Part shown: positions 9,143 through 43,528 of the stretch, piece after piece
Layout of the letters: the number at the start of each line of letters is the position of its first letter
How positions within the stretch are numbered: the stretch's first letter is position 1
Origin: Squalus acanthias
Taxonomy: Eukaryota
Assembly (NCBI GenBank): GCA_030390025.1
Contig: CM059432.1
Coordinates: 85,004,001 to 85,068,000 of the forward strand
DNA length: 64,000 nt
Reading direction: 5' to 3'
The notes under the pieces: generated by a model
Database searches by the model: none
What the model was told of the DNA's origin: nothing
What the model saw: the letters and a program-made list of their open reading frames with translations, nothing else
Translations under genes and position numbers: made by a program

Positions 9143-9385
9143 TCACAAGGGTAGTCACTTGGGTGTTTTCATCTGATACAAATGTTTGTCATCGTTATTA
9201 TTAATGTATTAAAGAAAAGCGATGGCAAAGATTCAAAGAGTTCGCCTATGTGTGCTCAGAAATGCAAGTTGCACAGTGAGGAGTCAGGGCACCTTTCATC
9301 GGTAATGATGGTGGTGAGAGTGATAGAAAACCACAGTTTATTGCATAGATGCTGTATGGTGTGTTAAGAAGGTCGGCCAGACATT

Positions 9386-15089: not shown

Positions 15090-15530
15090 CACCCCGATCA
15101 TCTCTCCCCCCACCCCCCGATCACTGCCCGACACCACCCCCCCCCCACAAACTCCGATCCTTTTAACGGCCCGGCCCGATCCGCGATCACTGGCCAACAC
15201 CCCCCCAACCCCTGATCCTTTTAACAGACCGGCCCGATTCTCGATCCCTGGCCGACACCCCCCCAACCCCCAATCCTTTTAACGGCCCGGCCCGGCCCGA
15301 TCCGCGATCACTGGCCGACAACCCCCCCAACCCCCGATCCTTTTAACAGCATGGCCCGATCCTCGATCACTGGCCGACACCCCCACCCCGATCCTTTTAA
15401 CAGACCGGCCCGATCTTCGATCCCTGGCCGACACCCCCCCCACCCCCCGATCCTTTTAACGGCCCGGCCTGATCCTTGCTCACTGGCTGACACCCCCCAC
15501 CCCGATCCTTTTAACAGCCCGGCCCAATCC
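15090..15530. repeat. C-rich ~55-bp minisatellite (CCGATCCTTTTAACGGCCCGGCCCGATCCGCGATCACTGGCCGACACCCCCC)
   Basis: About 7 imperfect tandem units. Confidence 0.9.
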
Positions 15531-17549
15531 CTCCCTCCCTCCTTTGTGCAGCCTAGTGCCGCAAGCCTACCCGCCCACAACCAGCCAGCCTCTCAATCTG
15601 ACTGGCTGCGGGCGGGAAACCGAGGCCTCGCATGCAAATCAGGCCCAGCTGTTAAAGTTGGCAGGGCCTGCGTGAAACCCGGCCTCCCGAATTTGTCGAC
15701 CATCTCGGAGCCACCCCCGCACCCCCATCCCCAACCTGCCCTCCTCCTTAAAATCCAGCCCAACCTCTCAGCTTCTACCCTGTCAAGCCCCCTCAGAATT
15801 TTACATGTTTCAATGAGATAAATGATATTTTGACATTGGGTACATTTGCAAAAGGAATCTCTTGTAGACAATAGGCTGGATTTTGTCAGTGTGGGCGGGC
15901 TGGAGCGTGTCAAGTGGAAATCGTGCCAGGACCCCGACTCCTAATTGAAGTGCTGAAAAAGTGGGATTTTCCCCTAATTGGCCAATTGATTTCCAGCGTG
16001 TGGGAACCCCTGGCCCAATGAGTCTTTTCAGACAGAAAGTCGCCTCCGATGACGTCATCAATGCTGCTGGATTTAAGGCCTGCAAGCAGCCTTGCTTCTT
16101 CTGGAGACTGCAAACTTTATGGCCATTGCTGTCTTTGCCTTCTTCATCAACTATGTCCAGCAGTCGGCCACAGTGTGCTCCACATTTCGATGAGCCCTCC
16201 CTCCAAGCTCTGGTGGAGGGAGCGAGATCCAGGAAGGAGGTGCTGTTCCCTTCCTCAGGGAGAAAAAAGCCACCCCAGCAGACAAAAGCTGTGTGGCTGC
16301 AAGTGGCCCAGGAGGTCAGCTCCATCTCGCTGAGCCGCAGAACCTGGCTGCAATGCAGGAAGAGGTTTCATAATCTTCTCCGAACAGGAAAAGTGAGTAT
16401 GACTTTCCCATCACCCTCAATCTGATCCCCATCGCCTCTCCTCACCAGCACTCTGCTTTGCCAACCTCTTCCTCCACATTCCACTTGACACTTACATGCC
16501 TGCACACTTACCCATTCCCTCTCTCTCTCAGGTCACATTCAGTTAACTATTCGACCATTCAGCCCTCACACTCCCTATCACTGTGATGCCATGACAACAA
16601 CAACTTTCAGCACACAGTGAGGGTCTTTTGTATCCTTCTAAGCATTTATGCTATGGATTCTCTACACTCAGTCCTTCATTCTCACTCAAACTCCACTTGT
16701 GTCCCTCATTGCAGGAAAAGAGAGCCCACAATAAGAGGGAAAGGGCGAGGACAGGAGGAGGGCCACCCTCAGTAGCCCAGCTCACCACTTCGGAGGAGGC
16801 GGCCCTGGAGATCGCCGGAGTGGAGGACGATTTGCAAGTGGGGGACGGACAGATGGGTGCATCGCAGCAAGCTGGTGACAGAATAGTTTGTCATCTCTCT
16901 CATTGACATTGCATGAGTCACTGATAATGATTCTGATGCTCTAATAGATTGACTTATGATCATCTGCAGTATTCATTGTGCATGTAACCTTGGCCTCACA
17001 TCTCTAACTCTTTCCTTTACTCCCCCACAGGAGCATCGAAAGCCCCCGTCCCCACTATCCAGGAGGAAGAGCCTGAGCAGACAGACTCCTCAGAGGAAGA
17101 TGCAACCTCTGAGGGTGCAGCGTCAGCAGAATTCAGAGCACCCAACACCAGCGCAGACACTCACACCTTGGTGGGACCTTCGGGAGATAGAGTAGTGTTG
17201 TCACCTGGTGTATCACAGCTCACAAGTGAGCATCAGAAGATGGTGGAGACAGGGACAGCAGTGGAGAGTCCTCGTCGGAGGGCGCAGGACTCTGCCAGCT
17301 CAGCTCAGCTGCATGTTGACCCTATGCCTCCGGGTCCATCTAGAAGGAGAGCGGTGCTTGAACTCCAGGAACAGGTGCAGGAGTCTCTGGCAGGTTTTGT
17401 CTCCAGGGTCGCTGCGAGTGTGGAGCGAATGGAGGAGTCCATCGCGAACATGAGCAGAGCCTTTGTGGAGGCATTGGCGCATGAACGCATCACCATAGAA
17501 AGGATGGCAACCTCCGTGGAAAGGATGTCTACAGTAGAGGAGAGGATGG

Positions 17550-19248
17550 TGTAAGGTTTCCAAAATTTGCAGATCCCCAAAACCTAAGGAAAAAGGACTT
17601 TAGAACTACCTCAGAGTGATAAAAATGCATTTGGGCCTAACCTAAGGAATATAAGACCAAAACCTGTGTTTTGGCATTTTAAAAAACATGTCTGGGCCTG
17701 TGAAGGGAGAAAAGGCTGTGAAGGAAGTTGGTATGACCTCTGTAAAAGCAGTTTTGGGTATTGCAGTTAATTGCATTGTCTGGGGAACCGGGATGACCTC
17801 ACTCAAAGCCCCAGCATGCATTAACATTTTGACAATAGACCCTAGGAGAAGACAGTCCCACCAAAAACAATAGGTCCCATCAAACCGATTACAGGGCCCA
17901 TCAGAAAACATGCATAATACAGAGCACCCAGGACTAGGCTATAGATCAGCCTAGGAACACAAAACACAAAACCAATCACCAGCAATCAGCCAAGGAGATT
18001 GACAGGATGCAAACCATCCCAAAACCCATTTGACACTTACAGAGCAGTTACTGGTAGCAGGCCCGCCAAATTCAGACAATGAACTGAACAGATTTGGCGG
18101 GTAGATAAGGCAATATTCAATGGGTCAGATTGAAGGCCTGTTAAAACCCAGTTAACGTGCTAGTAAATTGTTATCGAGCCCGCCAAAACTAGACAATGAA
18201 CTGAACAGATTTGGCGGGTAGATAAGGCCACTTTAATTCTGTATAATTGAAGGCCCACCAAGCACACCAAGCAAGCTAGAAGAGAGAGAAACACTACAGT
18301 TCAGCATTCGTTGGGTCAAGCAGTCAGTCGCAACTGGTGGTCATCAGAAGGAGGAGAGACCAAGAAGAAGAAGGCTCGAGCTGGAAGCGAGTCGGCATCG
18401 CTCACCACTCGGACACACCTGAGTCCAGCTCGCGAAGACACCACCTCGACAGACCCCCAACAATGGCCCCAACACAGTCACCCGGAGCAATAAGCAGCAA
18501 CAAGTCACCGACGGCTCCACGAGGTTGACCGACACACCAAACAAGGACTAAAGCCATCGCGGAAACCAAAGGCCTCACAAAACCAACAATCGCGCATTAC
18601 CCCCAACTGACCGGGTAATAGCAGGCCAACGCGACCAACAAAGACCAACTCCAGGGAAGAAAACCCGAAGAATCGCAAAGTTTCCACACTACAAACTACT
18701 CCTGACTTACCCCTGGGTAAGATTTTCCCCAAAGACTCTAAGCCCTACTGCTCAACTAAAGAAATTGGGTACTCACCAGATAAATCCGTAATGACATCCT
18801 ACCGCATCAGCGGACTCGCGAAGACTGACCAGAGACCCAGGTGAAGTCCTCTACCACGTATGGGGTACGGCAGACACTAACCGCCATAAACAGCGAACCC
18901 CAAAACTGCGATTTAGCCCAACTGTCAAAGGATTGGTGAGCATTATCCCTGGTCCATCAAAACCTAACTTAGCTAGTAAAGTGAGGTTGGGAGGGGTGAA
19001 GTATTGTTCTACTGTCATTTCCCTCGCTTGTACCGAAGTGTTCCCCACCTTTAGAGTGATAAGAGTTTTATTGTTTGTGTCTTACCTTTTAATAAAGATT
19101 GAAGTTCTTTCATCAAACTCAGTTGTCTGCAGCACCTTTTGTATCACAACCCCCAAATAAGTCCATGGTCTAGAACCAAGGGAGTGGAGGCGATTCGAAC
19201 CGCTCAGAAGTCAGAGGTAAAGCTGACACAAAAACACCACCCCCTACA
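17550..19248 (+). repeat. 5' LTR (1699 bp)
   Basis: TGTAAGG...CCCCTACA; direct repeat of 32726-34434; TATAAT at 18242; AATAAA at 19091. Confidence 0.97.
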
Positions 19249-19250
19249 TA

Positions 19251-21072
19251 ATGGCGACTGCGGCAGGACCTTGGCAAAAGGGATGTGATGCAGTGGACAC
19301 TGTTTTTGAAGAGAGAACCAAAATGGAGGAAAGGATTTCCTCCTATGTGTTCGAAAAGGTGAACATAACTAAGAAGTGGGTACTCAGTCTGCTACGTGCT
19401 GAACGTCCAATAGACGCTGCAGCTAAGTGGACTGAGAGCAAAGACCACAGGAAATCTGTGGAAAAGGCCATCTGGTTGATCTGTTCCCAGAAACAGATAC
19501 AACTATTGGATAAACGTGTAGAGACACTCAAAGCAGAACTGCAGGAGTCTGCTCAGCTGTCTCAAGCAAGAGCCCTAGCAGGGGAAACATTACTCAGTGA
19601 ACTAACAGCCCGAGATCAGGAAAGGAGGCTGTTAGTAGAAATGTACAGGAACAGTCAAGAGTATTTTCAGTGTCAGGTCACCGAAGCAAAAAGCAGTGAA
19701 CTAGTGTTGAGGGAAGAAAACACCTGCCTTGCTAGGCAAGTAAAGGAACTAGAAGAGAGGTTAAGAGATGTCCAGGCAGCTTACAAGGTAGCAAGCACAA
19801 GGGGGTATGAAGCGGGAGAGCACAGCCCCTGCCAGAAACAAATAGAAAGTTTGAACCTTGCTCTGTCCAGAGCCAAAGGCATGGTATGCCTGTTAAGCCC
19901 GGGTACGGCCTGAGTGGACCTGGAAGTGCAGGGGGAAACTGTTTGAACGCCACCTGTGGCATCGGGGAACGACTCGGTTGGGCAGCAGGAAGGAAGGGCG
20001 ATTTGTGAGGCTGGCAGGAAGTGCACACCAACTGTGGCGCCGGGTTTTGACTCGGTTTGGCAGCAGGCAGAGGTGGGCGAACCAATGCAGGAGAGGTTGG
20101 AGCCGGGGCCGATGTGCCCGGTCCGGCAGCAAAAGTTTGGCCCACTCAGCGGTGATGAGGGTCAAGGACCCCTCGAAAGCCAATTCGTGGCTCCCCACGG
20201 TACCCAACAGCTTAGGGCTATGATAAGCCACCTGAGTAAGCTCACTCAAAAAGAGGACCCCTCAGTCCACTTCATGGAAGTGGAACAGGCAGCAGGCATC
20301 AATGACTGTGATGATGCCGAGATGGCCAAAATGTTCCTGTTCTCACTGGACAGCAAAATCTATCAGTCCCTCTCCGCAGAGAGTAAAAGAGGGCAGGGTG
20401 GATATGCTGCCATCAGAGAGGGAGTTCTGGAGGCCATGGGAATGAATGATGGGAGTCCTTTCTCCAGGGTGGAGAAGACTACACAGCTAGTAGGGGAGAC
20501 CCCACAGGCTTTCGCAGACCGACTGTGGCCTGTGTACAGGAGTGCCTGTAATGGGGTTCTCGACAGGGCTCACCTGACTCAGGATGAGCTGGCCCACTGG
20601 CTCCGAAGTCTGGTGGCAAACAGCTTGCCATGGATCAGAGCCAAGGCCGAGCTGTGGTTTGACCCAAGGGACCCCCGGGGTACCGAAGAGACAGTGGTCA
20701 GACAACTGACCCTAGCTTACCGAAACGGTAGGGGGGTAGAAGAGCATCCTTCCAAGGGGAAGGTGCATGAGAAAAAACCCAGCCAGAGTAAGAAACAGTG
20801 GCACCAGGAAGGGGGTAACCCTTCCGACACGAAGCGTAACTGTTTCAGGTGCGGGAAGAGTGGGCATTGGAGGAAGGACTGCAGGAATCCATGGAAGGAT
20901 AACCTAGGAAAGAATTCTCCAGCCCCTGCCCCAAAAGTAGAAACCCCAACCTCTCCCCACACGTTAGACTCGGTCGTAGAAGCGATTCGAGCCTTGTTAA
21001 CTGGCCCAGGAAAGGTAGCCACAGCCACTGGGACAGTGACCCCCCTCTGCCCCACCAAACACAGACTTATGA
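19251..21072 (+). pseudogene. gag: Gag: N-terminal coiled coil, CA-like region, CCHC zinc knuckle; two in-frame TGA (19911, 19944) and a probable +1 frameshift near 21045
   Basis: ORFs 19251-19913 and 19956-21161 are in the same frame; CFRCGKSGHWRKDC knuckle; heptad-rich N-terminal half. Confidence 0.85.
19252..19269 (+). promoter_or_regulatory. Primer-binding site, tRNA-Arg(UCG)-like
   Basis: TGGCGACTGCGGCAGGAC, 3 nt after the LTR; 17/18 match to the complement of the vertebrate tRNA-Arg(TCG) 3' end as I recall it. Confidence 0.8.
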
Positions 21073-24000
21073 CTAGAGCCAGCGCAGCCTGTCTACCTGT
21101 GTCCCCTGGAGTACGACGCTTGGAAGAGGACCACTTGTTAGGATGGAGGTGGAAAAGTTGAAAGGGACTTATCTGTTATATACTGGAGCTTCCAGCACCA
21201 TAGTCTATTCAGAGAATCCCACAGCCTCACCTCTGTCTAACGGGGTCCCGTACAGTTTAGTGGGATTCACAGGTAACGAGCAGGCTGGCTCGTTCTCCAT
21301 CCCGCTGTCCATTCATTTAGGAACACTCCACACCAAGTGGACCTGTGTCCTGATGAAATGGGAGAAAGAGGGGACGGGGATCCTGGGGGCCGACTTTATC
21401 ACAGGCCACAGGATTTTAGTGGATCTAAGGAACCACTGTCTGTGGGGAGCATGTGTGGGTAGAGAGAGTGAAGTGTCAGTCATCCCAGGGAAACAGGGCA
21501 AGGGGACCTTGTGTACCCTAAAACCAAAGGAAGGTTACGACCTCGAGCAAATGGTCAGTAACACTCCGGTGGAGTACCAGGCATTTGTGCGAGCACACCT
21601 CGCAGCATTTGCCACTCACAAGCATGACTGTGGGAGGGTCAACGGGGTCGACGTTAGTGTCAGTGGAGACCCCATGACCCGACCACAGAAGCAGTATAAC
21701 TTCCTCAGGGAGGCGGAAGCAGACATGGAAGCAGCCATGGCTTCCTTAGTAAAGCAGGGAGTGCTGAGACCGATAGCCACCCATGTAAACTCCCCACTGT
21801 GGCCGGTTAGAAAACCGGACAACTCCTGGAGGGCCACAGTGGACTATCGGGTACTCAACCGTAACATCCCCGCCTGTGCACCCACGGTGGCAGCCGTTGC
21901 CGACCTCATTGGAAGTATCCCAGCATCTGCAACCACCTTCACTGTGCTGGACATTTCCAACGGGTTTTGGTCCATCCCTTTAAGAAGGGAGGACCAGTAC
22001 AAGTTCGCCTTCACGTTTAAATGCCAACAGTACACCTGGAACTGCCTACCCCAGGGTTTCCACAATAGCCCCAGCATTTTTCATCAATGCATGGCTAATT
22101 GTTTGAAGGGCTTCAGCCGGCCCCGGCAGTTGGTACAGTATGTGGATGACCTACTCCTGTTCACTGATGAAGGAGAGGAACACGGTACACTACTGGCTGA
22201 ACTGCTGGAGCTGCTCCGGCAAGAAGGCTTCAAGGTAAACCCTAAAAAGGTACAGATCGGCCAACAGGAAGTAAAATTCCTAGGGCTAACTGTGCACGCA
22301 GGGGAAAGGGCCATTGACAAAGCCAGAAGGGAAGCAGTGCAGGAGTTACCAGCCCCCAACACAGTCACAGGGGTAAGGTCTTTTCTAGGACTGACTGGGT
22401 ACTGCAGAGATTTTATTGAGGATTATGCAGCCACAGCAGCCCCTCTGCTCCGACTCCTACACAAGGGTGTAGAGTGGGCTTGGGACGAGGGTTGCGAGGC
22501 AGCATTTGTAAGGCTCAAAAAGGATCTGCAGACCGCACCAGCTCTAGGGGCTATTGATGGGGAGAGAGAGTTTTTCCTGGAGGTGGCAGCCAGCGGGGAC
22601 AGTCTGAGTGCTGTGCTGCTCCAAGAGAGGCACGACGGGCTGAGACCAGTGGTCTACACCTCCAGGATACTCACTGATGTGGAGAAGGGCTACTCCAACT
22701 GTGAGAGGCACCTCCTCGCCACTCACTGGGCTGTGAAAAGATCATTGATCTTCACAGGCACATCTCCCATCACCCTGCTCACCCATCACACGCCCACCCA
22801 GATGCTCCTAGATGGGAGAATCAAAGATGGGACAGTGAGCAGTGCCCTTATTGCCCGCTGGACCCTACTTCTCTCCCAGATGGACCTAAGGGTAAAAGGG
22901 CTCTGCGAGCCGAGGCTCGCAGCCAACCTAATTTACCCAGGGAACGCCCACCGGTGTTCCATAGAAGGGGTATGGGAAGTTAACAGAGGTTTTCGGGCCG
23001 GGATACACCCCACAGGCCGTGAAATCTATGTGGACGGTTCGAGCACAGTATCTGCTGGAGAACGACTCACAGGGTGTGGAGTTTATGACCCAGAGGCGGA
23101 CATTGCCTTGGCCATTAAACTCCCCAGCACCATGAGCGCCCAGCAGGCCGAACTGTCTGCGGTGGTGTATGTAGTTACACACCCCGAGAAGTTCCCTACC
23201 CCATACACGATTTGCTCAGACAGCATGTTCACATGCAATTCGTGTACGGAGTACCTGGCCATCTGGTCCCGTCGCGGATACACCTCCGCTGATGGGAGAC
23301 CCCTCACCATAAAGCCTCTGTTGGAGAGAATCATGGCAGCAGTGGGGGAGGAAGGGAAGGTCTTCATCCATAAGGTAAAGGCCCACTCTAAGAAAGAGCC
23401 CAAGTGGGAAAACAACCACAAGGCAGATGAGCTGGCCAAAAAGGGGGCCAGAGAAGGGATATTCTGGGACCCGTAGCAAGCGGGTCCAGTAGCAGCAGTT
23501 CGGGCCAGGGGAAGCACACAGGGTGTAGCTTTGGCCCCGGACTTAAAACAGGCCCAAACCCAGAACACAGTCCTCAAGACTGTCCTGAACAGGCTTGAAA
23601 AAGGGGAGAAAGTAGAGGGCCCGTACGGCACAGCAGCCATCACTGTAAAGGAAGGCATGCTGTTCAGAGGGGAGCAATGGGTAGTGCCGCAGCAGCACTG
23701 AAGGGAATTCCTCCAACTGGCCCATGAGGGTCCAGGAGCGGGGCATCCCGGACCTGAGACCACCTGGCAATGGGTGGAACAGACAGGATGGTGGCCAGGA
23801 CTCAGGGAAGATGTCCGCGAGTTCTGTGCAGGCTGCCTAGTGTGTGTTGCTAACAACCCAGACCCCCAGAAAAGGAAGGTGTCTATGGGACACATCAGGA
23901 GGGTAGAGGGACCATGGCAGTCGATCCAGGTCGACTACATCGGGCCCCTACCCACCGTCCAGGGAGGCTTTAAGTACTGCCTAGTCCTGGTGGATGTGTT

Positions 24001-25186
24001 CTCCAAGTGGGTAGAAGCATTCCCATGCCGTACGGCTACTGCATTGGGTACGGCTAGGATCCTAGTCAGGGAAGTGTTCTCACGGTGGGGACTACCACAG
24101 TATGTGGAGTCCGACCAGGGGAGTCATTTTACTGGGCAGGTTATGCAAGAGACCCTCAGGGTGCTCGGCATAGAGGGGAAATGGCACGTAGCCCACAACT
24201 CGCAGTCATCGGGTCCTGTGGAGCGTTTAAACCGTACCATTAAGGAAAGGCTAAGGAAGGAAATGGGAGACTCACCCAAAAAGTGGGTAGAACTCTTACC
24301 GTTGGTCCTAATGGAGATCCGAGCCAGCCAGTCAAAAAGCACGGGGTATTCCCCACACGAGCTCATGAATGGCAGAGTTATTTGGACCCCCACCCATGTG
24401 CTAGCCCCGGTGCTCAAGGAAGGGCAGCTCAGAGAGGTGAACCGGGACAGATTCGTCAGGAATCTGTTGGACCACCTTAAACAGGTCCTCTGGCAGGCTG
24501 CGAGTAACATGGGAAAACAGCATCGGAGTAACCGATTGCTGCTCCAACCCCGCAAGCAGCACGAGTGGGAGATAGGGGATCAGGTCATGGTTAGAAATTT
24601 TGCCCGGGTAGGGAGTTTCGAACGACTGTACATGGGGCCCTACCACATTGTGGACAAGGCAAGCCCCATGGTCTATGCCATAAAGATGCCCCGCCGTACA
24701 AAGTGGTTTCACATCAACCAATGCAAGCTGTTTAAACCCGAGAAAAGGGAACAGTCAGCAAAGGTGGACCACCCCAAAGTTAGAAATCCCCAGCCAGCAG
24801 CTGTGGCAGACTCACAGACTGCAGCGGTGGGGACAGTGGCTTGTATCACAGGAGGGTACACTCCACCGATTATGTGGGACTCAGGCACAGCCCCAGTGGC
24901 CAGAGTCCTGAGAAGGTCTCCTCGCACACCACAGCCTAAACTGCCGTGGTCACCGGTACATCAGTGGGTCAGCCCAAAGGGGGCTGCAACCCAAAAGGGA
25001 GTGCCCAAGGCCAGGGAGCGTTCAAAAGTTAGGGATCCCCAGCTTGCAGCCTCAGGCTGCAAGGAATCCACAGGACAGGACAGGACAGGGACTCAGCAGC
25101 CACACCAAAGGGGGCAGTGTGCTGTAGCACAGGAGGGGACACTCCCGGGATTGTCAGGGATTCAGGGAAACCCTCAGTTGTTTTAA
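21073..25186 (+). pseudogene. pol: Pol: protease, RT, degenerate RNase H tether, RNase HI, integrase
   Basis: LLYTGAS (mutated DTG), LDISNGFW, LPQGFHNSP, YVDD, YVDGS/AELSA/SDS/NHKAD, HHCC, DYIG/SDQG/VERLN, GPY; in-frame stops at 23474 and about 23699. Confidence 0.95.
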
Positions 25187-27567
25187 GAAGGACTCTCAGG
25201 GTCCTGCGGGAAAGGCCACCTTACCGGCTGCTCAGAAGCTGCCCAAGGCAGAGGCCATACAGGATTTGACCTGGCCGTCCAGAGACGGGCGGCGTATGTA
25301 CAGGGTTTTAGTGAATGTTAGGTGTTTTACAGTTTTGGTAGTTTTAGGATTTTTAAGGATTCTAGTTTTAAGGATTTTAGTGAGTAAGTTTAAAAGTTCT
25401 CAAGAATCGATCACCTGTCCAGCCAGAGAACCTTCTCGGGACATGGCTGTCTGTTTTGTGTGTCCCTACAGAGAGGAAATCGGCATGAGAAGGGTTCTGC
25501 TCCTGCTCGCCCTGGTAGGGGTGAGCATCGGTGACCGAGGTGACGTGGAGGACTCCCACATCTATGGATGCTCGGGAGAGAGAGGACCGGTCGTCACCAC
25601 AGGGGGTGGCGAACGGGGAGTGGAGGAGCTCGCCATCTACTTCCACGAGGGAAGGTGGCCAGGGTGGCTGGGGTCCAACTCTACTAAATACTCCAGCCAG
25701 ACCGGGTTCACGTACGGGGAGGCCTCCCTCCCATGCCCCAGAGTACAGGTCGTTGCCACGAGGGTCAGTGTCACCGAGGGGAAGCGTGTGTGCCTTACCT
25801 GTAAAGGACAAATTCCCCTGAATAGGTGGTGGTGGCTCAGGAAGCTGAGCAGGGACGCAGGGGACCATACAGCCGACTGGGAAAGATTAGGGAACGACAC
25901 CTACCGGACAATCACAGGGACCCAAGGGGGAGTGAGTGTGTGTTGGGATAAGTGGTGGGAGTCAGAACAGGGAGTCTATGTTTGTATGTGGAGGTCAGAG
26001 AAAGCCTGCTCCACAGGCATATCCATCATCTTCTCCAGACAATGGCAAGATGCCGGGGAGGGATGGGGTGGGATTCTAGCCTACATGTGTGCGTGCTCCC
26101 ACACTCCCCGACCCCAGTCAACGCCACCGAACTAGTAGCCTGCCCCCGAAAGCCCCTGCCCACGACCACGACTTCACGGACAGTAGAGGAGAGGTGTCCT
26201 ACCACCACCAAGGGACCAGAGAATGGACTAGTACTAGTACCGACCGAAAAGGTACTATACCAGGGGGTACACTATGCAGTAGCTTCAGTAATATTAAACC
26301 TTACCGAGGTACACTTACCTAAATGGTGTCCTAAGGAGACAGAACAGCTATACCAGGCCCTGCTAAAGGAAATGTTTAGAAAATTCTATGAATTCGACTT
26401 TGCCAACGTGGACAAAGCAGAGCTGTACAAACTACATGCAGAGCACACTATGGGCGCAGGGAGACAAAGAAGGGGGACCTGGAACGATATTTTCACAACA
26501 TATAATACAGGATCCTCAGTAATAAATAGCCTAGATGACATAGAGCTACAAACACAGATAAATGGTTTAAAAACCCAGTTGAGAAAGATCCTAACGGATG
26601 GGAACACAGTGGTAGGCTCAGAGCTACATGAGGACCAAGCTATGACGGTCCATCTAAAAGAGATTATGGCTGAGCTAGAGAGACACGCTAAAACAGTGAA
26701 TGCCCTCATACGGGAAGATAGGAATGCTTCAGATCAGGCTGCACAGAATGAGGTGTGTGTGCTATACGGGGCATGGTTGCTGGGCGAGGGCCGCAGCAAC
26801 CTGGAAGATTTAAAACAAGGTTTAGTCCCCTCCTGGATTAGCAACAAACACCTCTCAGCCCTCCACCCGTTCAGCAATTCACTGAGCCCATGTCAGCTCC
26901 GCCTAGCCTCTGAAGCCTACCCAGTCACATTAGATTGTGAACGTTCCAATCACTCTATCATGGGGATAGTAGTGAGGATGCCGGTCATGGGTGGGACAGC
27001 CCGACCCGCACCGGTATACAGGGTGGAGAACATTGGGATCATTCAAGGGGGTGCACACGTCCATTTCGCAGAGGTCCCACCTTATGTCATAAAGTGGGAG
27101 CACGCTATGACAGGTACTGACCTCTCCGGGTGCCGGAGCCAGGGTTCACACATAATACTGAGTCCCCAGCACTTGAACGCCTACTCTAGACCACAGTGCG
27201 GGTTTAAAGATGCTGGCGCACGACCTATCAACTGTACCATGGAGGTAATGGCACAAGGTCATGTTCCCCCACAGGTAGCATTCATAGGGGATGGGACATA
27301 TTGTGTCACCACAAGTGCGCCCCACTACCAGCATGGACAGCATTTCTGGTGTCCGGTGAGTGACAGCAGTTTCTGCTTTAAACCCAAGGCAGAAGTTCAA
27401 GTAGCCCAGGAACGGATTGTCCCCATTCCTGAACCCTCAACTGTTCACCTCACTGGAAGGGAAAACATTACCAACCTGCAAAACTATGTCACCTTCTTCG
27501 GCTATAAGATTCCTCCTCTACCCGAACACCTTACCGTCTTACTAAAAGCTGTACAGGTATCACAGAA

Positions 27568-30500
27568 ACATAGAAACATAGAAGATAGGAGCAGGAGTAG
27601 GCCATTCGGCCCCTCGAGCCTGCTCCACCATTCGATGAGATCATGGCTGATCATCCAAACTCAGTACCCTGTACCTGCCTTCTCCCCATATCCCTTGATA
27701 CCTTTAGCTTTAAGAAATATATCTAACTCATTCTTGAATATATTTAATGACTTGGCCTCAACTACCTTCTGTGGTAGAGAATTCCATAGGTTCACCACTC
27801 TCTCGGTGAAGAAATTCTTCCTCATTTCTGTCCTAAATGGCTTACCCCTTATCCTTAGATTATGACCCCTGGTTCTGGACACTCCGACCATCGGGAACAT
27901 TCTTCCTGTATCTAGTTTGTCCAGACCTGTCAGAATTTTATATGTTTCGATGAGATCCCCTCTCATTCTTCTATACTCCAGCGAGTATAAGCCCAATCGA
28001 CCCAATCTCTCTTCATATGTCATTCCTGCCATCCCAGGTATCAGCCTTGTGAATCTTCGCTGAACTCCTTCCATGGCAAGAACATCCTTCCTCAGATAAG
28101 GCGACCAAAACTGCACACAGTACTCAAGGTGTGGTCTCACCAAGGCCCTGTACAACTGCAGCAGGACATCCCTGTTCCTATACTCAAACCCTTTTGCTAT
28201 GAAGGCCAACATACCATTTGCCTTCTTCACCGCCTGCTGCACCTGCATGCTTACCTTCAGCGACTGGTGCACAACGACACCCAGGTCTTGTCGCACTTCC
28301 CCTTCTCCCATATCAGATAATAGTCTGCCTTTCTGTTTTTGACACCAAAGTGAATAACCTCACATTTATCCACGTTATATTGCATCTGCCACGCTTCTGC
28401 CCAATCACCCAACCTGTCCAAATCATCCTGGAGTTTCTCGGTATCCTTCTCGCAGCACACACGCCCACCCAGCTTTGTGTCATCTGCAAACTTGGAGATA
28501 TTACATTTAGTTCCCTTATCTAGATCATAAATGTATATTGTGAATAGCTGGGGTCCAAGGACCGATCCCTGCGGTACCCCACTACTCACTGCCTGCCACT
28601 CGGAAAAAGACCCATTAATTCCTACACTCTGCTTTCTGTCCGCCAACCAGTTCTCTATCCAAGTCAATACCTTGCCCCCAATCCCATGTGCCTTAACTTT
28701 ACACGCTAATCTCTTATGCGGAGCCTAATCGAAAGCCTTTTGAAAGTTCAAATACACCACATCTACTGGTTCTCCCTTATCTATTTTCCCAGTTACATCC
28801 TCAAAAAATTCCAGTGGATTAGTCAAGCACGATTTACCTTTTGTAAATCCATGTTGACTTTGTCCAATCCTGTCACTGTTTTTCAAGTGCTCAGCTATTA
28901 CATCCTTTATAATGGACTCTAGCATTTTCCCCACTACCAATGTCAGGCTTACCGGTCTGTAATTCCCCGCTTTCTCTCTACCACCCTTTTTGAATAGTGG
29001 GGTAACATTAGCTACCCTCCAATCCATGGGTACAGTTCCGGATTCCATCGAATGTTGGAAGATGATCAGCAATGCATCTACTATTTCTAGGGCCACTTTC
29101 TTACGTACCCTAGGATGTAGATTATCAGGCCCTGGGGATTTATCGGCCTTCAATCCCGTCAATTTCCCGAACACCATTTCCCTGCAAATACTGATTTCTT
29201 TCAGTTCCTCCCTTTCATCAGACCGTATGTTCTCCAACATCTCTGGGAGGTTATTTGTGTCCTCCTTTGTGAAGACAGAACCAAAATATGCATTTAATTG
29301 GTCTGCCATTTCTTTGGTCCCCTAAATAACTTACACCGCTTCTGACTGCAAGGGACCTACACTTGATTTCACTAATCTTTTTCTCTTCACATATCTATAA
29401 AAGCTCTTACAGTCAGTTTTTATGTTCCCTGCAAGCTTACTTTCATATTCTATTTTCCCCTTCTTAATTAATCCCTTTGTCCTCCTATGTTGAATCCTAA
29501 ACTGCTCCCAATCCTCAGGGTTACCGTTTTTTCTGGCCAATTTATATGCCCTCTCCTTGGATCTTATGCTATCCCTAATTTCCCTTGTTAGCCACGGTTG
29601 AGTCACCCTTTTTGTTTTATTCTTATGCCAAACTGGGATGAACAAATTCTGTAGTTCATCCATGCAGTCTTTGAATGTTTGCCATTGCCTATCCACCATC
29701 AACCCTTTGAGTGACATTCCCCAATCAATCCTACCCAATTCGCGCCTCATACCATCGTAGTTTCCTTTATTTAAATTCAGGACCCTAGTCTCTGATTCAA
29801 CTACTGCACTCTCCATCCTAATGAAGAATTCTATCATATTATGATCACTCTGACCCAAGGGGCCTCGTACAACAAGATTGCTAATTAATCCTTTCTCATT
29901 ACATAATACCCAGTCTAAGATGGTCTGATCTCTGGTTGGTTCCTCAAGATATTGTTCCAGAAAACCATCCCGTAAACATTCTAGGAATTCCTCCTCCACA
30001 GTATTTTTACTAATTTGGTTCGCCCAATCTATATGTAAATTAAAGTCACCCATGATGACTGCTGTGCCCTTACTGCATGCTTCTCTAATTTCCCTTTTAA
30101 TGCCGTCCCCAACCTCTGTATTACTGTTTGGAGGTCTATATACCACTCCCACTAACATTTTCTGCCCCTTGTTATTTCTCAGTTCTACCCATACAGATTC
30201 TGCATCATCAGAGCTAATATCCTTCCTTTCAATTGTGTTAATCCCCTCTTTAACCAGCAATGCTACTCCACCTCCTTTCTTTTTTGCCTATCTTTCCTAA
30301 AAATTGAATACCCCTGGATGTTGAGTTCCCAGCCTTGGCCACCCTGGAGCCATGTTTCTGTAATCCCAATCAAATCGTATTCATTTACCTCTATTTGCGC
30401 AGTTAATTCATCCACCTTGTTCCGAATGCTCATTGCATTAAGACACAAAGGGGGAAAAATTCAGTATCGCCCCGTTTGGGGCGCAATTATCGGCTGGGCG

Positions 30501-32164
30501 CAAAGATTAGCACCTGGCGCTAATTATCGCCTCCAACTGCAAACTTGACTTTTATCGCCCCTGGAGGTGATTGGAGCGCTAAATCAGGCGCTATACACAT
30601 GTCTTAAGGCGCAAAGGCCGAGGAGCGAGGCGGTAACTCACAGCGCTGGCAAAGCTCATGTGATGTCAGTCAGCAATGGAACAGAGACACAATGGCCCCA
30701 GCCAGTTCTTAAAGGGGAGGGTTAATCTTGCTTTCCATCCACATCCTGCTCATTGCAGCCTTGAATCTCGGCCTGGAGAGACCTGTACATCAAATCTGCT
30801 GGAAATAACAATGGAGAGGCCCAGGGAAAGAGCTCAGAGTGCAGCCCCAACAATCTCTTCTAAATCGATACAAGGAAGGGCAAATCAAAATGAACCTGCA
30901 AAGTGCTGCTCAGTACCCAAAACTCCTTCACACAGCGTTGAATCTCTCCAGAAGTCTCTCTCTCTCTCTCTCAGAATGCGTGGTTCAAAAATGTCGCCAA
31001 CAAAAAAAGGCAGGAAGCGGTCGCCTTTAAATAGCGCTCCCCCAGTCCCTTCCTGACTGCAATACGCTCCCCTCAACCTGTCGTTGCTAGCGGCAGGCGG
31101 TAAGGTAGGGGGTGCCACTCAATATCCGTTCAGGGGCGCTACTGGGGCGTTGCGCACTCGACTGACGTCACGATCTGCCAGCGCAGGAGATCGTGGCGGT
31201 ACTGTTTAGCGCCGCTGCAAAATGTCTAGTTAATTTCGCGAGCAACGCAAATATCGCCGCGCCCGGGCGCTAGTTGCTTTGCGCCCCATTAGCGCCCTCT
31301 TAAGGCGCTAACGGGAGGCGCAACCAATTGAATTTTCCCCCCAAAGCCTTCAGGCTTGTTTTTTTAATGCTCTCAGACCTATATGAATTATTATTTACTG
31401 TGACCATGTTTGATTTAAACCGTTGAGTTCTTTGCCTTCTACTTTTGTTTTTCTCCTTCCTGTCTTTTGCTTTTATCCTTGTTTCACTTTCCTCTTTCTC
31501 CCTGCTCAGGTTCCCAACCCCCTGCCACTTTAGTTTAAACCCTCCCCAACAGCACTAGCAAACACTCCCCCTAGGACCTCGGTCCCGGCCCTGCCTAGGT
31601 GCAGACCGTCCCGTTTGTACTGGTCCCACCTCCCCCAGAACTGGTTCCAATGTCCAAGGAATTTGAATCCCTTCCCCCTTGCACCATTCCTCTAGCCACG
31701 TATTCATTTGAAATATCCTCCTATTTCTACTCTGACTAGCACGTGGCACTGGTAGCAATCCTGAGATTACTACCTTTGAGGTCCTATTTTTTAATTTACC
31801 TCCTAACTCCCTATATTCTGCTTTTAGGACCTCATCCCGTTTTTTACCTATATCGTTGATGCCTATGTGCACCACGACAACTGGCTGTTCGCCCTCCCCC
31901 TCCAAAATGTTCTGTAGCCGCTCCGAGACATTCTTGACCTTTGCACCAGGGAGGCAACACACCATCCTGGAGTCTCGTTTGCGGCCGCAGAAACGCCTAT
32001 CTACTCCCCTTACAATTGAGTCCCCTATCACTATAGCTCTTCCACACTTTCTCCTCCCAGCCTGTGCAGCAGAGCCACCCATGGTGCCAGGAAGTTGGCT
32101 GCTGCTGCCTTCCCCTGATAAGTCATCTCCCCCAACAGTATCCAAAGTGGTATATCTGTTTGAG
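27568..32164 (-). mobile_element. Near full-length CR1 LINE (partial SGNH-esterase ORF1 plus APE-RT ORF2) inserted in env
   Basis: IVIGDSIVRG; ITETWL, VYRPP, MGDFN, SDHN; KFADDTK; AGAAACAT tail; AGAA TSD (27564-27567, 32165-32168). Confidence 0.95.
30450..31342. mobile_element. Harbinger-type MITE (893 bp) inside the CR1
   Basis: TIR GGGGGAAAAATTCA; AAA TSD; close inverted copy at 51793-52682. Confidence 0.9.
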
Positions 32165-32716
32165 AGAAGCATTTCTACACCCTAGAACAAAAGACACTCG
32201 AGATAGGGGCTGAGATTTCGGCCATCACGGTTCCACCCTGGTGGGACATTTTTGAAAACATAGAGGTTCCTTCTTGGATTAGGATGGCCTCCCACATCTT
32301 AGTGGTTTGCCAGCTCGGGATAGTCTTGTACTTACTGTGTACAAAATGCAAGGGGAAGGACAGAATGCTCCATTCCCGGCATGAGAAAGCCTGGGAAAAA
32401 CATTACAATAAAGTTTACCAAGTATAAAAGAAGCCTGAATCGATTCTAAAAATAAAGAAGTTTTGTGACCGTGTGTTATTTTCTTTCTATGTATGTATTT
32501 TGGTTTTTTTTCAAGTAGTGTAGGGGTGTTGGACCCCCTCCATGCTTGGATGTGTATCTTTTATGGATTCTTACCTGTATGTATTGGAACACTACACCAA
32601 AAAAAGGGAATGTATGTTTTTGGGTTTTAGTTTAGGTAATACAGGGGAAGGTTGGTTTTTCAAGGATCAGGAATTTTGTCCACCCAGAACGATACTGTAG
32701 TGAATTAAAGTATCGC

Positions 32717-32725
32717 AGGAGGGAC
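32717..32725 (+). promoter_or_regulatory. Short polypurine tract
   Basis: AGGAGGGAC directly before the 3' LTR. Confidence 0.6.
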
Positions 32726-34434
32726 TGTAAGGTTTCCAAAATTTGCAGATCCCCAAAACCTAAGGAAAAAGGACTTTGGAACTACCTCAGAGTGATAAAA
32801 ATGCATTTGGGCCTAACCTAAGGAATATAAGACCAAAACCCGTGTTTTGGCATTTTAAAAAACATGTCTGGGCCTGTGAAGGGAGAAAAGGCTGTGAAGG
32901 AAGTTGGGTTGACCTCTGTAAAAGGAGTTTTGGGTATTGCAGTTAATTGCATTGTCTGGGGAACCGGGGTGACCTCACTCAAAGCCCCAGGAAGCATTAA
33001 CATTTTGACAATAGACCCTAGGAGAAGACAGTCCCACCCAAAACAATAGGTCCCATCAAACCGATTACAGGGCCCATCAAGAAACAAGCATAATACAGAG
33101 CACCCAGGACTAGGCTATAGATCAGCCTAGGAACCCAAAACACAAAACCAATCACCAGCAATCAGTCAAGGAGATCGACAGGATGCAAACCATCCCAAAA
33201 CCCATTTGACACTTACAGAGCAGTTACTGGTAGCAGGCCCGCCAAATTCAGACAATGAACTGAACAGATTTGGTGGGTAGATAAGGCCATATTCAATGGG
33301 TCAGATTGAAGGCCTGTTAAAACCCAGTTAACATGCGAGTAAATCGTTATCGATTTACGAGCCCGCCAAAACTAGACAATGAACTGAACAGATTTGGCGG
33401 GTAGATAAGGCCACTTTAATTCTGTATAATTGAAGGCCCACCAAGCACACACCAAGCAAACTAGAAGAGAGAGAAACACTACAGTTCAGCGTTCGCTGGG
33501 TCGAGCAGTCAGTCGCAACCGGTGGTCATCAGAAGGAGGAGAGACCAAGAAGAAGAAGGCCCGAGCTGGAAGCGAGTCGGCATCGCTCACCACTCGGACA
33601 CACCTGAGTCCAGCTCACGAAGACACCACCTCGACGGACCCCCAACAACGGCCCCAACACAGTCACCCGGAGCAACAAGCAGCAACAAGTCACCGACGGC
33701 TCCACGAGGTCGACCGACACACCAAACAAGGCCTAAAGCCATCGCGGAAACCAAAGGCCTCACGAAACCAACAACCGCGCATTACCCCCAACTGACCGGG
33801 TAATAGCAGGCCACTGCAACCAACAAAGACCAACTCCAGGGAAGAAAACCCGAAGAATCACAAAGTTTCCACACTACAAACTACTCCTGACTTACCCCTG
33901 GGTAAGATTTTCGCCCAAAGACTCTAAGCCCTACTGCTCAACTAAAGAAATTGGGTACTCACCAGATAAATCCATAATGACATCCTACCGCATCAGCGGA
34001 CTCGCGAAGACTGACCAGAGACCCAGGTGAAGTCCTCTACCGTGTACGGGGTACGGCAGACACTAACCGCCATAAACAGCGAACCCCAAAACCGCGATTT
34101 AGCCCAACTGTCAAAGGATTGGTGAGCATTATCCCTGGTCCTTCAAAGCCTAACTTAGCTAGTAAAGTGGGGTTGGGAGGGGTGAAGTATTGTTCCACTG
34201 TCATTTCCCTCGCTTGTACCGAAGTGTTCCCCACCTTGAGAGTGATAAGACTGTTATTGTTTTTGACTTACCTTTTAATAAAGATTGAAGTTCTTTCATC
34301 AAACTCAGTTGTCTGCTGCACCTTTTGTATCACAACCCCCAAATAAGTCCAAGGTCTAGAACCAAGGGAGTGGGAGCGATTCGAACCGCTCAGAAGTCAG
34401 AGGTAAAGCTGACACAAAAACAGCACCCCCTACA
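32726..34434 (+). repeat. 3' LTR (1709 bp)
   Basis: Direct repeat of the 5' LTR; about 12 differences in the first ~370 bp by eye. Confidence 0.97.
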
Positions 34435-37400
34435 ATGGCTACGGCCATGGAGGAACTAAGTCGCCAGAGTGCAGAAAACATGGTCATTGTTTAGAATAGA
34501 CTGGCATCTCTTGAGGAGCGATGGTCAGCTATTGAGCATAGAAACCAGACCTTCATGGAAGTCCTCTGGAGTAGGACTTCCAGTGCAGAAACGGGTCCTC
34601 ATGGTCCCCCTGCAGTGCAGCAAGGTGCTGCCCAGCCACTTGCTAGCTCTGAAGTGGGACTGACCCATGAGAGGGATGTTGGTGGCATACAACAAGGAAG
34701 TGGGGGCTCCTCTCCAAGCACTCACATGACCATTCCACTGCAGAGCTCTCGGTCAGAGCCCCACCAGAGTCCCCACTCAACTGAGATCGGCGTCTCAACC
34801 ACTGCACAGCCGCAGGAGCAGCAGACTGTTGCCAAGCCCTCACAGGTTCACAACCCCAGAGGACGCCAGCCAAAGGTGTCGAGACAGGAGCAGCAAGAAA
34901 GTGAGCAAGGGGCTTCCACATCTGCTGAAGCCACAGGGGAAGCACCACGTAGGAGCACGCGTAAGAGGAAGATAATGCACAAGTAGTCATAAGGGTTGTC
35001 GCTTGGGTGTAATGTTGTGTTTAATTTTGAAAAGCCCTCAGTTGCTTATTGTCATAAAAAATTCTGATGGCAAACTGTTGCAGTTGTGGCGTGTGTCATT
35101 TCGCTAATGGGACTTCCACATTGAGGGCTTAGGGTGACTTGCAATTGTCAGTATGGTGGTCAGAGTGAGAGGAATCCGTAGATTTTTGTCCATTGTTGAT
35201 GCACTGGTAAGTAGGTGCGAGGCTAAACTGTTTGATTGTGCAGGCTAAGCAAATGTGACCAACATGAGTGCATCCCTTGCATCCCGGGCAGCAATATGCT
35301 GGCGCTCTGGCACCTTCTGGCCTGTGCATCTTCAGGTGGGTGACTAGCAGCTTGGCGCTCTTATTGATGTTCCTGCTGTTGGTGCTGCTGTTGCTCATGG
35401 TTCTGCTGCTGCGCAGCTGGTCTTCATCCGAATCTGATGTCGAGGAGGAAAGGAATTAAATGGTCGCCATGCTTCTGGTATATGCCTCAGTTGAGGAAGC
35501 GCTTAGTCAAGGTGGGGAGAAGGGATTCCAAGGAGGTCACACCGGAGATGGGTGTCAGGCTCCAAACTTCCACAACACTGAGTATGCCTGCTAAATGTTC
35601 CCCCAGACCTGAAGCAACAAAGTTCTGCCACCTGCAAATGATCATCGGTGAAAACTCCTTTGTAATGGTGGAGCTGCAACTGTTCGCAAGCAATCCACTA
35701 GTGAGGCCGCCAGGATTACCTGGCGTGTTCCAGAGGAGGCATGTAGGATGGGGGAAATGTGTTAAAATGGGAAAGGCCTCTCAAAATGGGATTATAGAGG
35801 CAATTAAGTGGTTGTTAAGGACCTTAAGGGCCTATCCCGGCTCTTGGAGGCGGGATGGAAAGCGGGTCAGAAAACACGCACTTGGGAAAATTGCTCGGAG
35901 GCGGGATGGAGGCGGGAACGGGCCCGTCTGCCAGTTTTGCCGATTTTAACAATTCGCACGCCTCCAAACCCGCCTCCTCGGGGCTGGGAAAATCGAGCCC
36001 AATGAGTTTAATATAGTGGGATTTAAATTGTTCTAAAAACTGTATTAATGCAATACGAGCATTGTAGTAAGGAAAAAGAGTTACAAACAAGTAGATTTAA
36101 CGTAGAAAGTATGGACTTCCAAGCCAGTTCCAGTGGTGAACCGAGCAAGGGACATTGCTTAAAGGACGAGCACTTCAGTGAACTCCCCAAAATGTCTGTC
36201 AGTACGAGGTACTTTTGAAGAAATATAACAAGAGACCTTGGGCCAGGAGGTTTAAGAAGATATTGAACATATTTACAGGACTTGCTACAACTCAATGCAG
36301 CATGACGTATCACCTACTAGAGCCTGGGCGAGGAATAGTATATAGGGACTATGTACCACGACGGTGCTGTGATCTCAAAACTGTCAGCACCTAGACCCAA
36401 GATGTTGCAGCTCTGAAGTAATGTCTAGACAGCACTCTCAGTGGAAGTGAAAGTGACCACTGCATTAATTATCTGTGCTACTGACTACTTTCAAGCACCA
36501 ACAAGGGACATCACTTGGATCAGCCAGTAACTAATTTTGGTGCAATTACCAAAGCAAGTGGCATATTTGGCTGTATACCTAGATTAATAAAAATATGTCT
36601 AATCAAATTATACTGAAACAATAAAGTATTGGTAAAACTACAATTGAAATATTAAATCTTTATCACTATACTTTTGAAAATATAGTAGCAGTAGAAAGGA
36701 ATGAAAGAAGGAAAATAAAGATAATTTTATGTTTTGGATCACTGAACACTTAAATCATTCGCATTGGAGAAAAAAGTTAAAGAGGGAGCACAAAGTCAGA
36801 GAATTACCCTATTGCTAACTCACAGTGCCACAGTCCCCACTTTATTAATTACCTTTGTAGTTTTCAGGAAAAAAACAATAAAAGGATATGAAAGGTGATT
36901 CCGTAATCCCACACTACCAGTGTAAAGCCACACTTACAGCAAACGTAGATCTGAGATTCAAAGCTACACGTTGTAAGAAATCGTGAATTGGAAGAAATTG
37001 TGAATTATAAGAAATAATGGCTTTATAAAACAAATAAGCTCAATTGAGCTGAGCAGCCAGGATAAGCTGCTGATACAGAAAAATTCCAATCACGCCAGAT
37101 AGGGAGTTGTACAAAGAGCTGAGGTTGTTGCAAGGTCATAACATACAGGTGCATATTCCCCCGTAAATGGACAATTGAATGTGTAAAAGTGATTATAACA
37201 AGTGATTGACGTGAGGTATCTACCAGCCCCGAAAGTAAGGTATATAAACGGGCAGCCAAGAGGGAAAGGCGGGCAGAAAGGGGGGCTAGCTTCCCTGGGG
37301 TGGATGCATGCTAGCTTCGACTTAACACCCTGGTCAAGTTTAACCTCTGAGGTGGATTCCATGCTAGCTTCGGCTTAACACCTCCGCCAGCTCGGGAGAC

Positions 37401-42500: not shown

Positions 42501-43528
42501 TTTTTAATTACGTGCTTGTAAAATATTTTACTATTTTGTTTTATGTTCCTTGGAACATAGGAACATAGGAACAGAAGTAGGTCATTCAGCCCCTCGAGCC
42601 TGCTCCGCCATTCAATGAGACCATGGCTGATCTGCGATCTAACTCCATATACCCGCCTTTTACCCATATCCCTTAATACCTTAGGTTAACAAAAAGCTAT
42701 CAATCTCCAATTTAAAATTAACAATTGATCTAGCATCAATTGCCGTTTGCGGAAGAGAGTTCCAAACTTCTACCACCCTTTGTGTGTAGAAGTATTTCCT
42801 AATTTCACTTCTGAAAGGTCTGGCTCTAATTTTTAGAGTATGCCCTCTAGTCCTAGAATCCCCAACCAGCGGAAATAGTTTCTCTCTATCTACCCTATCT
42901 GTTCCCCTTAATATCTTGAAAACTTCGATCAGATCACTGCTTAACCTTCTAAATTCTAGGGAATACAAGCCTAATTTGTGTAATCTCTCCTCGTAACTTA
43001 ACCCTTGAAGTCCGGTAATCATTCTGGTAAACCTACGCTGCACTCCCTCCAAGGTCAATATATCCTTCCTAAGGTGTGGTGCCCAGAACTGCTCACAGTA
43101 CTCCAGGTGTGGTCTAACCAGGGCTTTGTATAGCTGCAGCATAACTTCTACCCCCTTGTACTCTAGTCCTCTAGATATAAAGGCCAGCATTCCATTAGCC
43201 TTTCTGATTATTTTCTGTACCTGTTCATGACATTTTAATGATCTATGTACCTGAACACCCAAGTCTTTTTGGACATCCACTGTTTTTAGCTTTTTACCAT
43301 TTGGAAAGTACCCTGTTCTATCTTTTTTTAGGTCCAAAGTGGATGACCTCACATTTGCCTACGTTGATATCTATTTGCCACAGTTTTGCCCATTCACTTA
43401 ATCTATCAATATCCCTTTGCAATTTTATGCTTTCATCTACACTGCCTACAATGCCGCCTATCTTTGTGTCATCGGCAAATTTGGACATATGACTTTCTGT
43501 GGCATCATCTAAGTCGTTAATACATATT

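Follow-up and report, generated by a model that had tools for sequence, protein, structure and literature searches.

A predicted immunoglobulin-type head in frame with a paramyxovirus F-like fusion module in the Env of an endogenous retrovirus of sharks and a skate

RESULTS

A provirus with an env gene split by a LINE

We analyzed 64,000 nucleotides of Squalus acanthias DNA (GenBank assembly GCA_030390025.1, contig CM059432.1, positions 85,004,001 to 85,068,000, forward strand). This whole stretch is called the window, and all coordinates refer to it. An endogenous provirus occupies positions 17550 to 34434. Its 5' and 3' LTRs are 96.1% identical over 1709 columns. The provirus ends are TG...CA, and it is flanked by a 4-bp target-site duplication, ATGG. 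The features are as follows.

17550 to 19248, plus strand: 5' LTR, TG...CA, preceded by ATGG at 17546 to 17549 (identity to the 3' LTR; ends read from the sequence)
19227 to 21161, plus strand: gag, in two frames (open reading frames)
19227 to 19913, plus strand: N-terminal, putatively coiled-coil part of gag (weak matches to coiled-coil families)
19947 to 21161, plus strand: capsid-like part of gag with one CCHC zinc knuckle (zf-CCHC, E 2e-5; capsid label inferred from position)
21077 to 25186, plus strand: pol, broken by stops, with a protease region, reverse transcriptase (RT), a tether RNase H-like domain plus a second RNase H, and an integrase with a C-terminal SH3/GPY-F-like part (Pfam RVT_1, RT_RNaseH(_2), RNase_H, Integrase_H2C2, rve, SH3_Tf2-1)
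25485 to 25532, plus strand: Env signal peptide, a hydrophobic N terminus predicted by eye from the sequence
25533 to 25733, plus strand: N-terminal extension of the head, with Cys 25569 and the HEGRWPGWLGSNS motif, conserved in shark and skate relatives (pLDDT mostly below 50)
25734 to 26000, plus strand: predicted Ig-fold core, strands A to F, with the B-strand Cys at 25800, the C-strand Trp at 25833, and the F-strand Cys at 25983 (Pfam, profile, model, and dN/dS)
25734, 25791, and 25941, plus strand: extra Cys residues of the Ig core
26001 to 26140, plus strand: F-G region with two conserved Cys, including the frameshift of the window copy at about 26060 to 26075 (profile alignment, AF2)
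26141 to 26194, plus strand: Pro/Thr-rich stalk, from which point on the protein is similar to an Env with a different head
26195 to 27571, plus strand: putative F-type (paramyxovirus F-like) class I fusion module, with a CPxxxKGPxNGLVL start, a furin-type RQRR at 26462, a heptad repeat, and a Cys-rich beta region
27572 to 32151, minus strand: LINE insertion interrupting env (minus-strand RT/endonuclease-like open reading frames; repeat families D1, D4, D6, and D14; gap in env)
32152 to 32424, plus strand: last 91 codons of env, with a membrane anchor at about 32275 to 32340 and a short tail
32726 to 34434, plus strand: 3' LTR, with a purine tract at about 32716 to 32725 before it and ATGG after it

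The env gene of the window copy is split by a LINE of about 4.6 kb at about 27572 to 32151, which an earlier note on this DNA had overlooked. Env residues 690 to 696 are matched on both flanks of the insertion. We take the LINE to be CR1-like. It lies in the orientation opposite to env, and further copies of the same family are found at about 10165 to 11551 and 41067 to 44703.

A stretch that starts with TGG at 19252 to 19270, 3 bases past the 5' LTR, is likely the primer-binding site. There is no tRNA gene in the 64,000-nucleotide window. The provirus is apparently nested in another repeat, because its flanks (15949 to 17350 and 34434 to 35010) match one unbroken copy at 7739 to 9166 (repeat families D12, D13, D15, and D18). 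The open reading frame at 15949 to 16425 presumably encodes the Myb/SANT-type protein of Harbinger-like transposons, by its look. Tandem or near-tandem repeats lie at 45302 to 45573, 4847 to 5194, and 15112 to 15502, and their units are 30 bp, 17/34 bp (G-rich), and about 58 bp (C-rich) long.

The provirus likely belongs to an SnRV-like family

The provirus RT scored 174 to 178 bits with MLV/XMRV, 157 to 173 bits with foamy viruses, and 127 bits with Ty3. We also compared it by eye with the 24 lokiretrovirus RTs and SnRV in the accessible supplement of PMC7947760, a set in which ERV-L and fish foamy-like RTs are not counted. About 76 of 153 positions were identical to SnRV (~50%), versus about 53 of 150 to Loki-Lch (~35%). 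The provirus and SnRV share an LPQGF motif where the lokiretrovirus RTs in that supplement have [CML]PFG[YL]. The Gag proteins agree as well: SnRV Gag has an N-terminal coiled coil and one zinc finger, according to the accessible part of PMC2717909, and both are matched in the provirus Gag. An F0-like Env and a dual RNase H are present in the provirus, as in lokiretroviruses. The earlier note had taken lokiretroviruses as its frame of reference. That framing does not fit the RT, which looks SnRV-like by eye. From these sequence comparisons, the provirus likely represents a family of SnRV-like (class III) endogenous retroviruses found in cartilaginous fishes. A lineage of the SnRV-like kind has been reported from the elephant shark (PMC4977317, as far as the available text goes), and lokiretroviruses were found in none of six chondrichthyan genomes in the accessible part of Wang and Han (PMC7947760).

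The C-terminal module of Env resembles paramyxovirus F

Residues 236 to 760 of Env, in its natural frame, matched the Atlas entry 'Fusion glycoprotein F0' with a score of 0.92 and 197 of 256 features. This region has a furin-type RQRR, a heptad repeat, a Cys-rich beta region, and an anchor. A profile of the fusion module reached the F0 chains of the PDB only at E values of 3.7 to 3.8, and the module had no Pfam match. A PDB phmmer search with the module alone gave one chance match, and profile A2, diluted by its overhangs, gave no match in the PDB. The single-sequence AF2 model of the 780-residue frame had no usable fold (pLDDT 32). We saw no gamma-type CX6CC, CC pair, or ISD by eye in this frame, and there was no match to TLV_coat or a similar Pfam family. 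Judged by its sequence features, the C-terminal module resembles paramyxovirus F.

The N-terminal head has a predicted Ig fold

The frame at 25485 to 26135 encodes the signal peptide, followed by VQVVATRVSVTEGKRVCLTC, WWWLRK, and SEQGVYVC. These are the Ig signature residues that the earlier note had pointed out, and its coordinates for the B-strand Cys (25800) and the F-strand Cys (25983), with 60 residues between them, are right. The B-strand Cys, the C-strand Trp, and a D/E-x-G-x-Y-x-C F strand are all present, and the Cys, Trp, Gly, and Tyr are invariant or nearly so among 11 family members. The CLTC sequence at the B strand forms a CxxC (Cys 25791 and 25800) that is invariant in the family.

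Pfam, profile, and fold searches put this signature above chance, the sequence searches at modest scores. The Pfam search proposed in the earlier note matched the window frame to Ig_3 at E values of 0.0027 to 0.0061, but at 18.6 bits the match stays under the cutoff of 30. All 11 family members matched Ig_3 (best E 3e-4), again below the curated cutoff, and none of the 11 matched V-set at an E value of 1 or less. The family profile of the head aligned with the V domain of CRTAM over 92 positions (E 0.011), and the single sequence aligned with basigin (E 0.04). The best Atlas rows for the head were of Ig type, but they scored below 0.9 and serve as a lead only.

We modeled the head with AF2 from an alignment of 23 related rows. 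The model is a beta sandwich with a core pLDDT of 60 to 80 and a pTM of 0.59; the mean pLDDT is 53, and three of the five models were below 40. A Foldseek search with the model, a check that the earlier note had proposed, recovered Ig domains. The PDB rows listed are of Fab, VNAR, NITR, SIRP, basigin, and TCR types, with a best E value of 2.4e-4. A VIA comparison with 48,161 chains placed TREM-1 first (Z 8.7, rmsd 1.9, 93 residues aligned), and Fab V domains reached Z scores of up to 9.3. The structural matches are IgSF domains with a sequence identity of 12 to 23%. The model has only a short C', and V-set and I-set structures tie in Z. On the VIA scale, Z scores of 7 to 8 are common for models without a clear match, and the 8 to 9 of the head is little above this. 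Therefore, the case for an Ig domain lies in the agreement of motif, profile, and fold, not in one score. On that agreement, the modeled head very probably has an Ig fold.

The segment with the HEGRWPGWLGSNS motif (25533 to 25733), which precedes the Ig core, had no confident fold and no match in these analyses. It may pack onto the Ig domain via Cys 25569.

The F-G region lacks a J-like G strand

The window copy is broken near 26060 to 26075, in agreement with the frameshift that the earlier note had placed near 26070. The note had then read WGGDSSLHVCV across this break as a J-like G strand. We examined 39 copies, of which 22 fit a strict pattern that requires a single frame between the F strand and the fusion module; the 17 misses include broken copies and ones with substitutions in the pattern. 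None of the 22 unbroken copies has [FW]GxG downstream of the F strand. Copies that are unbroken at this point read G[MI]GWDSSLHVC, and the second subfamily reads G[I]GWDRS..SC. The WGGD motif is thus an artefact, because the frame break had been put there.

The G strand itself can be placed in two ways. In the profile alignments with CRTAM and basigin, it follows right after the F strand, just past Cys 26007, as G-x-S-I-x-F. In the AF2 model, it corresponds to the NATEL motif at 26120 to 26140 before the stalk (pLDDT about 55), and this leaves an F-G loop of about 40 residues that holds two conserved Cys. We slightly favor the AF2 placement, because the apparent G strand of related Envs, judged by eye, lies directly before the stalk. 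A long, Cys-containing F-G loop, as the earlier note had described, is therefore possible in this low-confidence part of the model, but its G strand is not where the note had put it. The special link to VNAR or TCR that had been suggested did not hold up either: TREM-1, NITR, Fab, TCR, VNAR, and I-set structures lie within about 1 Z unit of each other, at 12 to 23% identity.

The head is in frame with the fusion module and under purifying selection

We checked the continuity of env in 19 other copies, in line with the consensus check that the earlier note had recommended. The junction between head and fusion module lies in one stop-free frame in 17 of them, and the remaining two have an in-frame stop at the junction. 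Eight of the 19 are unbroken from the signal peptide to the fusion module, and one copy has a 780-codon frame that runs through the anchor. The junction is also spanned in the database proteins P0003 and P0007 (skate) and in P0006. As had been read from the window copy, a Thr/Pro stalk (26159) and then the fusion module (from 26195) follow behind the head.

The family is abundant. A DNA search gave at least 40 matches at 90 to 100% identity, and a query with the head gave at least 150 matches at 89 to 100% among 5800 candidates; both figures count matches, not copies. A second subfamily has a head that is about 62 to 67% identical, and named relatives come from a sawshark, a skate, and a catshark. 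Pieces of env also occur in the annotated gene models P0004, P0005, P0014, and P0036, fused there to a zinc-finger protein, Niban, a cadherin, and an F-box protein; they are either exonised pieces or annotation artefacts.

For the 106-codon Ig core, dN/dS was 0.09 to 0.15 in eight between-lineage pairs and 0.45 in one within-subfamily pair. For the fusion module, it was 0.10 to 0.11 in three pairs. The low value of the head, like that of the fusion module, indicates that the head served a function in Env as long as the virus replicated. The main proposal of the earlier note therefore stands: an Ig-superfamily domain, as predicted, lies in frame at the N terminus of an F-type retroviral Env. 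In addition, purifying selection acted on it.

Related Envs carry other heads

Among 1.84 billion representatives searched, 46 relatives were found. The full-length relatives share the fusion module at 20 to 31% identity, and their front parts differ. In Mustelus P0016, the similarity sets in exactly at the stalk; the two heads do not align. The heads of the shark proteins P0016 and P0025 are Cys-rich, without any Ig sign. Bamboo shark P0015 and the genomic families L054 and L057, which have an integrase upstream, have a common second head type with Ig-like motifs by eye. The automatic UniRef name of P0015 is 'Ig-like domain-containing protein', and its Env nature is not mentioned. The same genome contains at least three more env families (L051 to L058) that combine an F-type module with a different, degenerate Ig-motif head, and an integrase lies upstream at five of these eight loci.

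Two frog proteins, P0024 (Pelodytes) and P0044 (Mantella), have a third Ig-like head type by eye. The head of P0024 ends in WGEGILIEI, a J-like pattern. Mantella has many near-identical Env copies of 677 residues (P0044 and P0051 to P0064). The Logan protein P0037 is a full-length Env whose head is V-set-like (Pfam E 0.045) and free of Cys, and IgSF chains such as CEACAM1, SLAMF5, and CD8 make up 9 of its 13 weak PDB rows. Its CD2/CEACAM-like head is possibly a separate, more recent capture.

The profile of the provirus head, run against 261 targets, gave E values of 0.4 for frog P0024 and 5.7 for P0015, which do not establish homology to the other heads. With hhalign, the provirus head matched six other head sets at probabilities below 3%, no better than reversed controls. 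Only the head of P0015 gave significant alignments, with the L054 (96%) and L057 (88%) heads. One old capture and several captures are thus not separable. The Ig status of the other heads is a lead only, since there is no significant alignment and the provirus head alone was folded. In an unrooted fusion-module tree of 17 rows with three long branches, the shark Envs with non-Ig heads lie nearer to the provirus family than the other Envs with Ig-motif heads do. The support is unstarred (87/88 and 89/92), and we therefore claim no order of events.

DISCUSSION

A proposed attachment head on an F-type fusion machine

The head is fused in frame to the fusion module, is conserved in sharks and a skate, and is under purifying selection, and related Envs have other heads or none. 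The modeling, together with the motif and profile matches, shows this head as a predicted Ig domain. We propose, as a reading that we find reasonably probable, that the Env of this SnRV-like endogenous retrovirus consists of an F-type fusion machine with an added, divergent Ig attachment head. The C-terminal module would be a class I fusion machine of the paramyxovirus, foamy virus, and lokiretrovirus kind, cut at the furin-type site. The N-terminal module would be an added V/I-type Ig domain with extra disulfides, held out on the Pro/Thr stalk. After cleavage, the head would stay on the surface subunit. It may serve as an attachment module that binds a host surface protein (IgSF partners are usual), and would in this way supply what a bare F protein lacks.

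Given the Ig fold, it is probable that the head is an attachment domain. This reading is drawn by analogy with the RBD-C of gammaretroviruses and from the F protein, which to our knowledge lacks a receptor head of its own. To find cells, fusion proteins of the F type depend on a partner or on an extra domain, and an N-terminal Ig head would do this job by its position. More tentatively, an ancient recombination within env may have brought in the domain from a host IgSF gene, the domain having diverged too far for its donor to be named. Capture from a host is plausible. The searches gave no host donor gene closer than about 20 to 25% identity, and those of the own genome gave proviral copies only, among the best 150 matches listed.

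The head might instead act on immunity, displayed on virions and infected cells as a decoy or modulator that engages an inhibitory receptor or mimics self, with entry carried out by another part of Env. The closest folds do include the immune receptors TREM-1, NITR, SIRP, BTLA, and CD8, and the BFVD search is topped by Ig proteins of pox-, herpes-, and adenoviruses, many of which are immunomodulators. Lokiretrovirus Envs, of which 4 of the 23 listed in the available supplement were compared, also work without a head. However, the likeness to immune receptors is generic (tied Z scores, 12 to 23% identity). Mimicry usually leaves a clear host similarity, as it did in the SIRP-like RBD according to the accessible text of Hötzel, and none was found here. 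The N-terminal position on the surface subunit, on a Pro/Thr stalk, is also that of known RBDs. We consider a decoy role unlikely. Capture from another virus, for example of the IgV-like RBD-C found in gamma-type Envs or of an Ig gene that a fish DNA virus carries, would still allow an attachment role. It would fit the RBD transfer between distant Env groups reported in the available part of Hötzel 2024, and the BFVD rows include Ig proteins of salmon gill poxvirus, grouper iridovirus, and cyprinid herpesvirus. Yet these viral matches score no better than cellular ones, and the head keeps the canonical B-F disulfide, which RBD-C lacks in that text. Retroviral RBDs are not named among the listed structural rows, although their absence there does not exclude them. 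A viral source therefore seems quite improbable to us.

Two further readings concern details of the head. The presence of VNAR structures among the top Foldseek rows, and a model that permits an F-G insertion of about 40 residues with two conserved Cys, would suit the capture of a V domain from an antigen receptor (IgNAR/VNAR or TCR), CDR3 and J segment included. But [FW]GxG occurs in 0 of 22 unbroken copies and a V-set match at an E value of 1 or less in 0 of 11 members, VNARs fit no better than TREM-1, NITR, or I-set domains, and the best sequence-level matches are CRTAM and basigin. Such a capture is very unlikely, and the shark Env head has no bearing on the origin of antibodies or VNARs. 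The invariant CLTC is also a CxxC, so that Cys 25791 and Cys 25800 could form a gamma-type thiol-isomerase motif and the Ig likeness could be incidental. However, the second of these Cys occupies the canonical B-strand place, the first appears placed to pair with the E-strand Cys 25941, and the fusion module is F-type, with no CX6CC or ISD by eye. We find this explanation scarcely credible.

Beyond the attachment head of this one family, the other heads allow a wider suggestion, which we make tentatively and regard as a minority possibility. The SnRV-like clade of fishes and amphibians may descend from a headless F-type fusogen that was repeatedly given different host IgSF domains as receptor-binding heads. 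On this doubtful reading, the captured heads would be of several kinds: two from sharks, one of them the disulfide-rich head described here, one from frogs (with a WGxG G strand in one case), and one that is Cys-free and CD2/CEACAM-like. A non-Ig Cys-rich head exists besides these. If the reading is true, capture of host IgSF domains would be a routine route to attachment for F-type Envs and not a one-off. It would then stand as a third solution, next to the paramyxoviruses with their separate attachment protein and the foamy viruses with their inserted RBD.

Comparison with known systems

The earlier note knew of no Ig domain in a retroviral Env, but such domains have already been described. 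In the accessible part of Hötzel 2024 (bioRxiv 10.1101/2024.03.17.585361), IgV-like N-terminal RBDs are described in MLV, FeLV, Env-Pb(1), and ZFERV, the SIRP-like IgV RBD of Env-Dbi/Env-Per derives by capture from a gene of mammals, and the passage of RBDs from one Env group to another is documented. As far as that text goes, the gamma-type RBD-C and the SIRP-like RBD are likewise independently folding IgV-like domains at the N terminus of the surface subunit, with a Pro-rich linker, RBD swaps, and a proposed host capture. The differences are that these RBDs sit on gamma/alpha-type Envs, whereas the shark head sits on an F-type module; that RBD-C has no B-F disulfide, whereas the shark head keeps it; and that the SIRP-like RBD aligns clearly with its donor, whereas the shark head does not align with one.

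Another host IgSF sequence is carried by the crocodilian endogenous retrovirus CrocERV31 (PMC4299795). According to the available text, it is a whole three-domain nectin3, about 76% identical to the host gene, that has replaced env, whereas the shark head is fused to env. The literature covered, with subscription papers and some supplements outside its scope, yielded no report of an F-type, SnRV-like, or shark Env that bears an Ig head. The word 'immunoglobulin' is absent from the texts of PMC7947760, PMC13524379 and its preprint, PMC13709493, PMC2717909, PMC12583693, and bioRxiv 2021.11.23.469661. The part that appears to be new is the F-type Env with an Ig head, together with its shark and frog relatives, whose heads are different and unalignable. 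The Env of this retroviral lineage has received little description so far.

F-like retroviral Envs are known from lokiretroviruses (PMC7947760) and foamy viruses (PMC11468914), in the parts of these sources at hand. The lokiretrovirus Env described there is F0-like, with a furin site, a coiled coil, and an anchor, alongside a dual RNase H in pol, and the provirus shares these features. The earlier note had asked whether lokiretrovirus Envs contain the Ig domain. The four that we compared, of 23 listed in the accessible supplement, have no head: in all four, by eye, a GPxNGLVL-like motif follows straight after the signal peptide, whereas in the provirus the head lies between the two. Since these Envs open directly with the fusion motif, the provirus Env has about 220 added residues, the head and stalk, compared with those four. 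The foamy virus Env (Fernández et al. 2024, PMC11468914, available text) also combines a paramyxovirus/pneumovirus F-like core with a separate receptor-binding domain. However, in foamy Env the RBD is an insertion in domain III with two linkers, whereas the shark head is N-terminal and has a single stalk. The Ig-fold domain II of F and foamy Env belongs to the core and does not correspond to the shark head. Together, the headless lokiretrovirus Envs, the foamy Env, and the shark Env would form a natural series on the attachment modules added to one ancient fusogen, and the shark Env would extend the model of RBD capture and exchange, as set out in the available part of Hötzel's work, beyond the gamma/alpha-type Envs.
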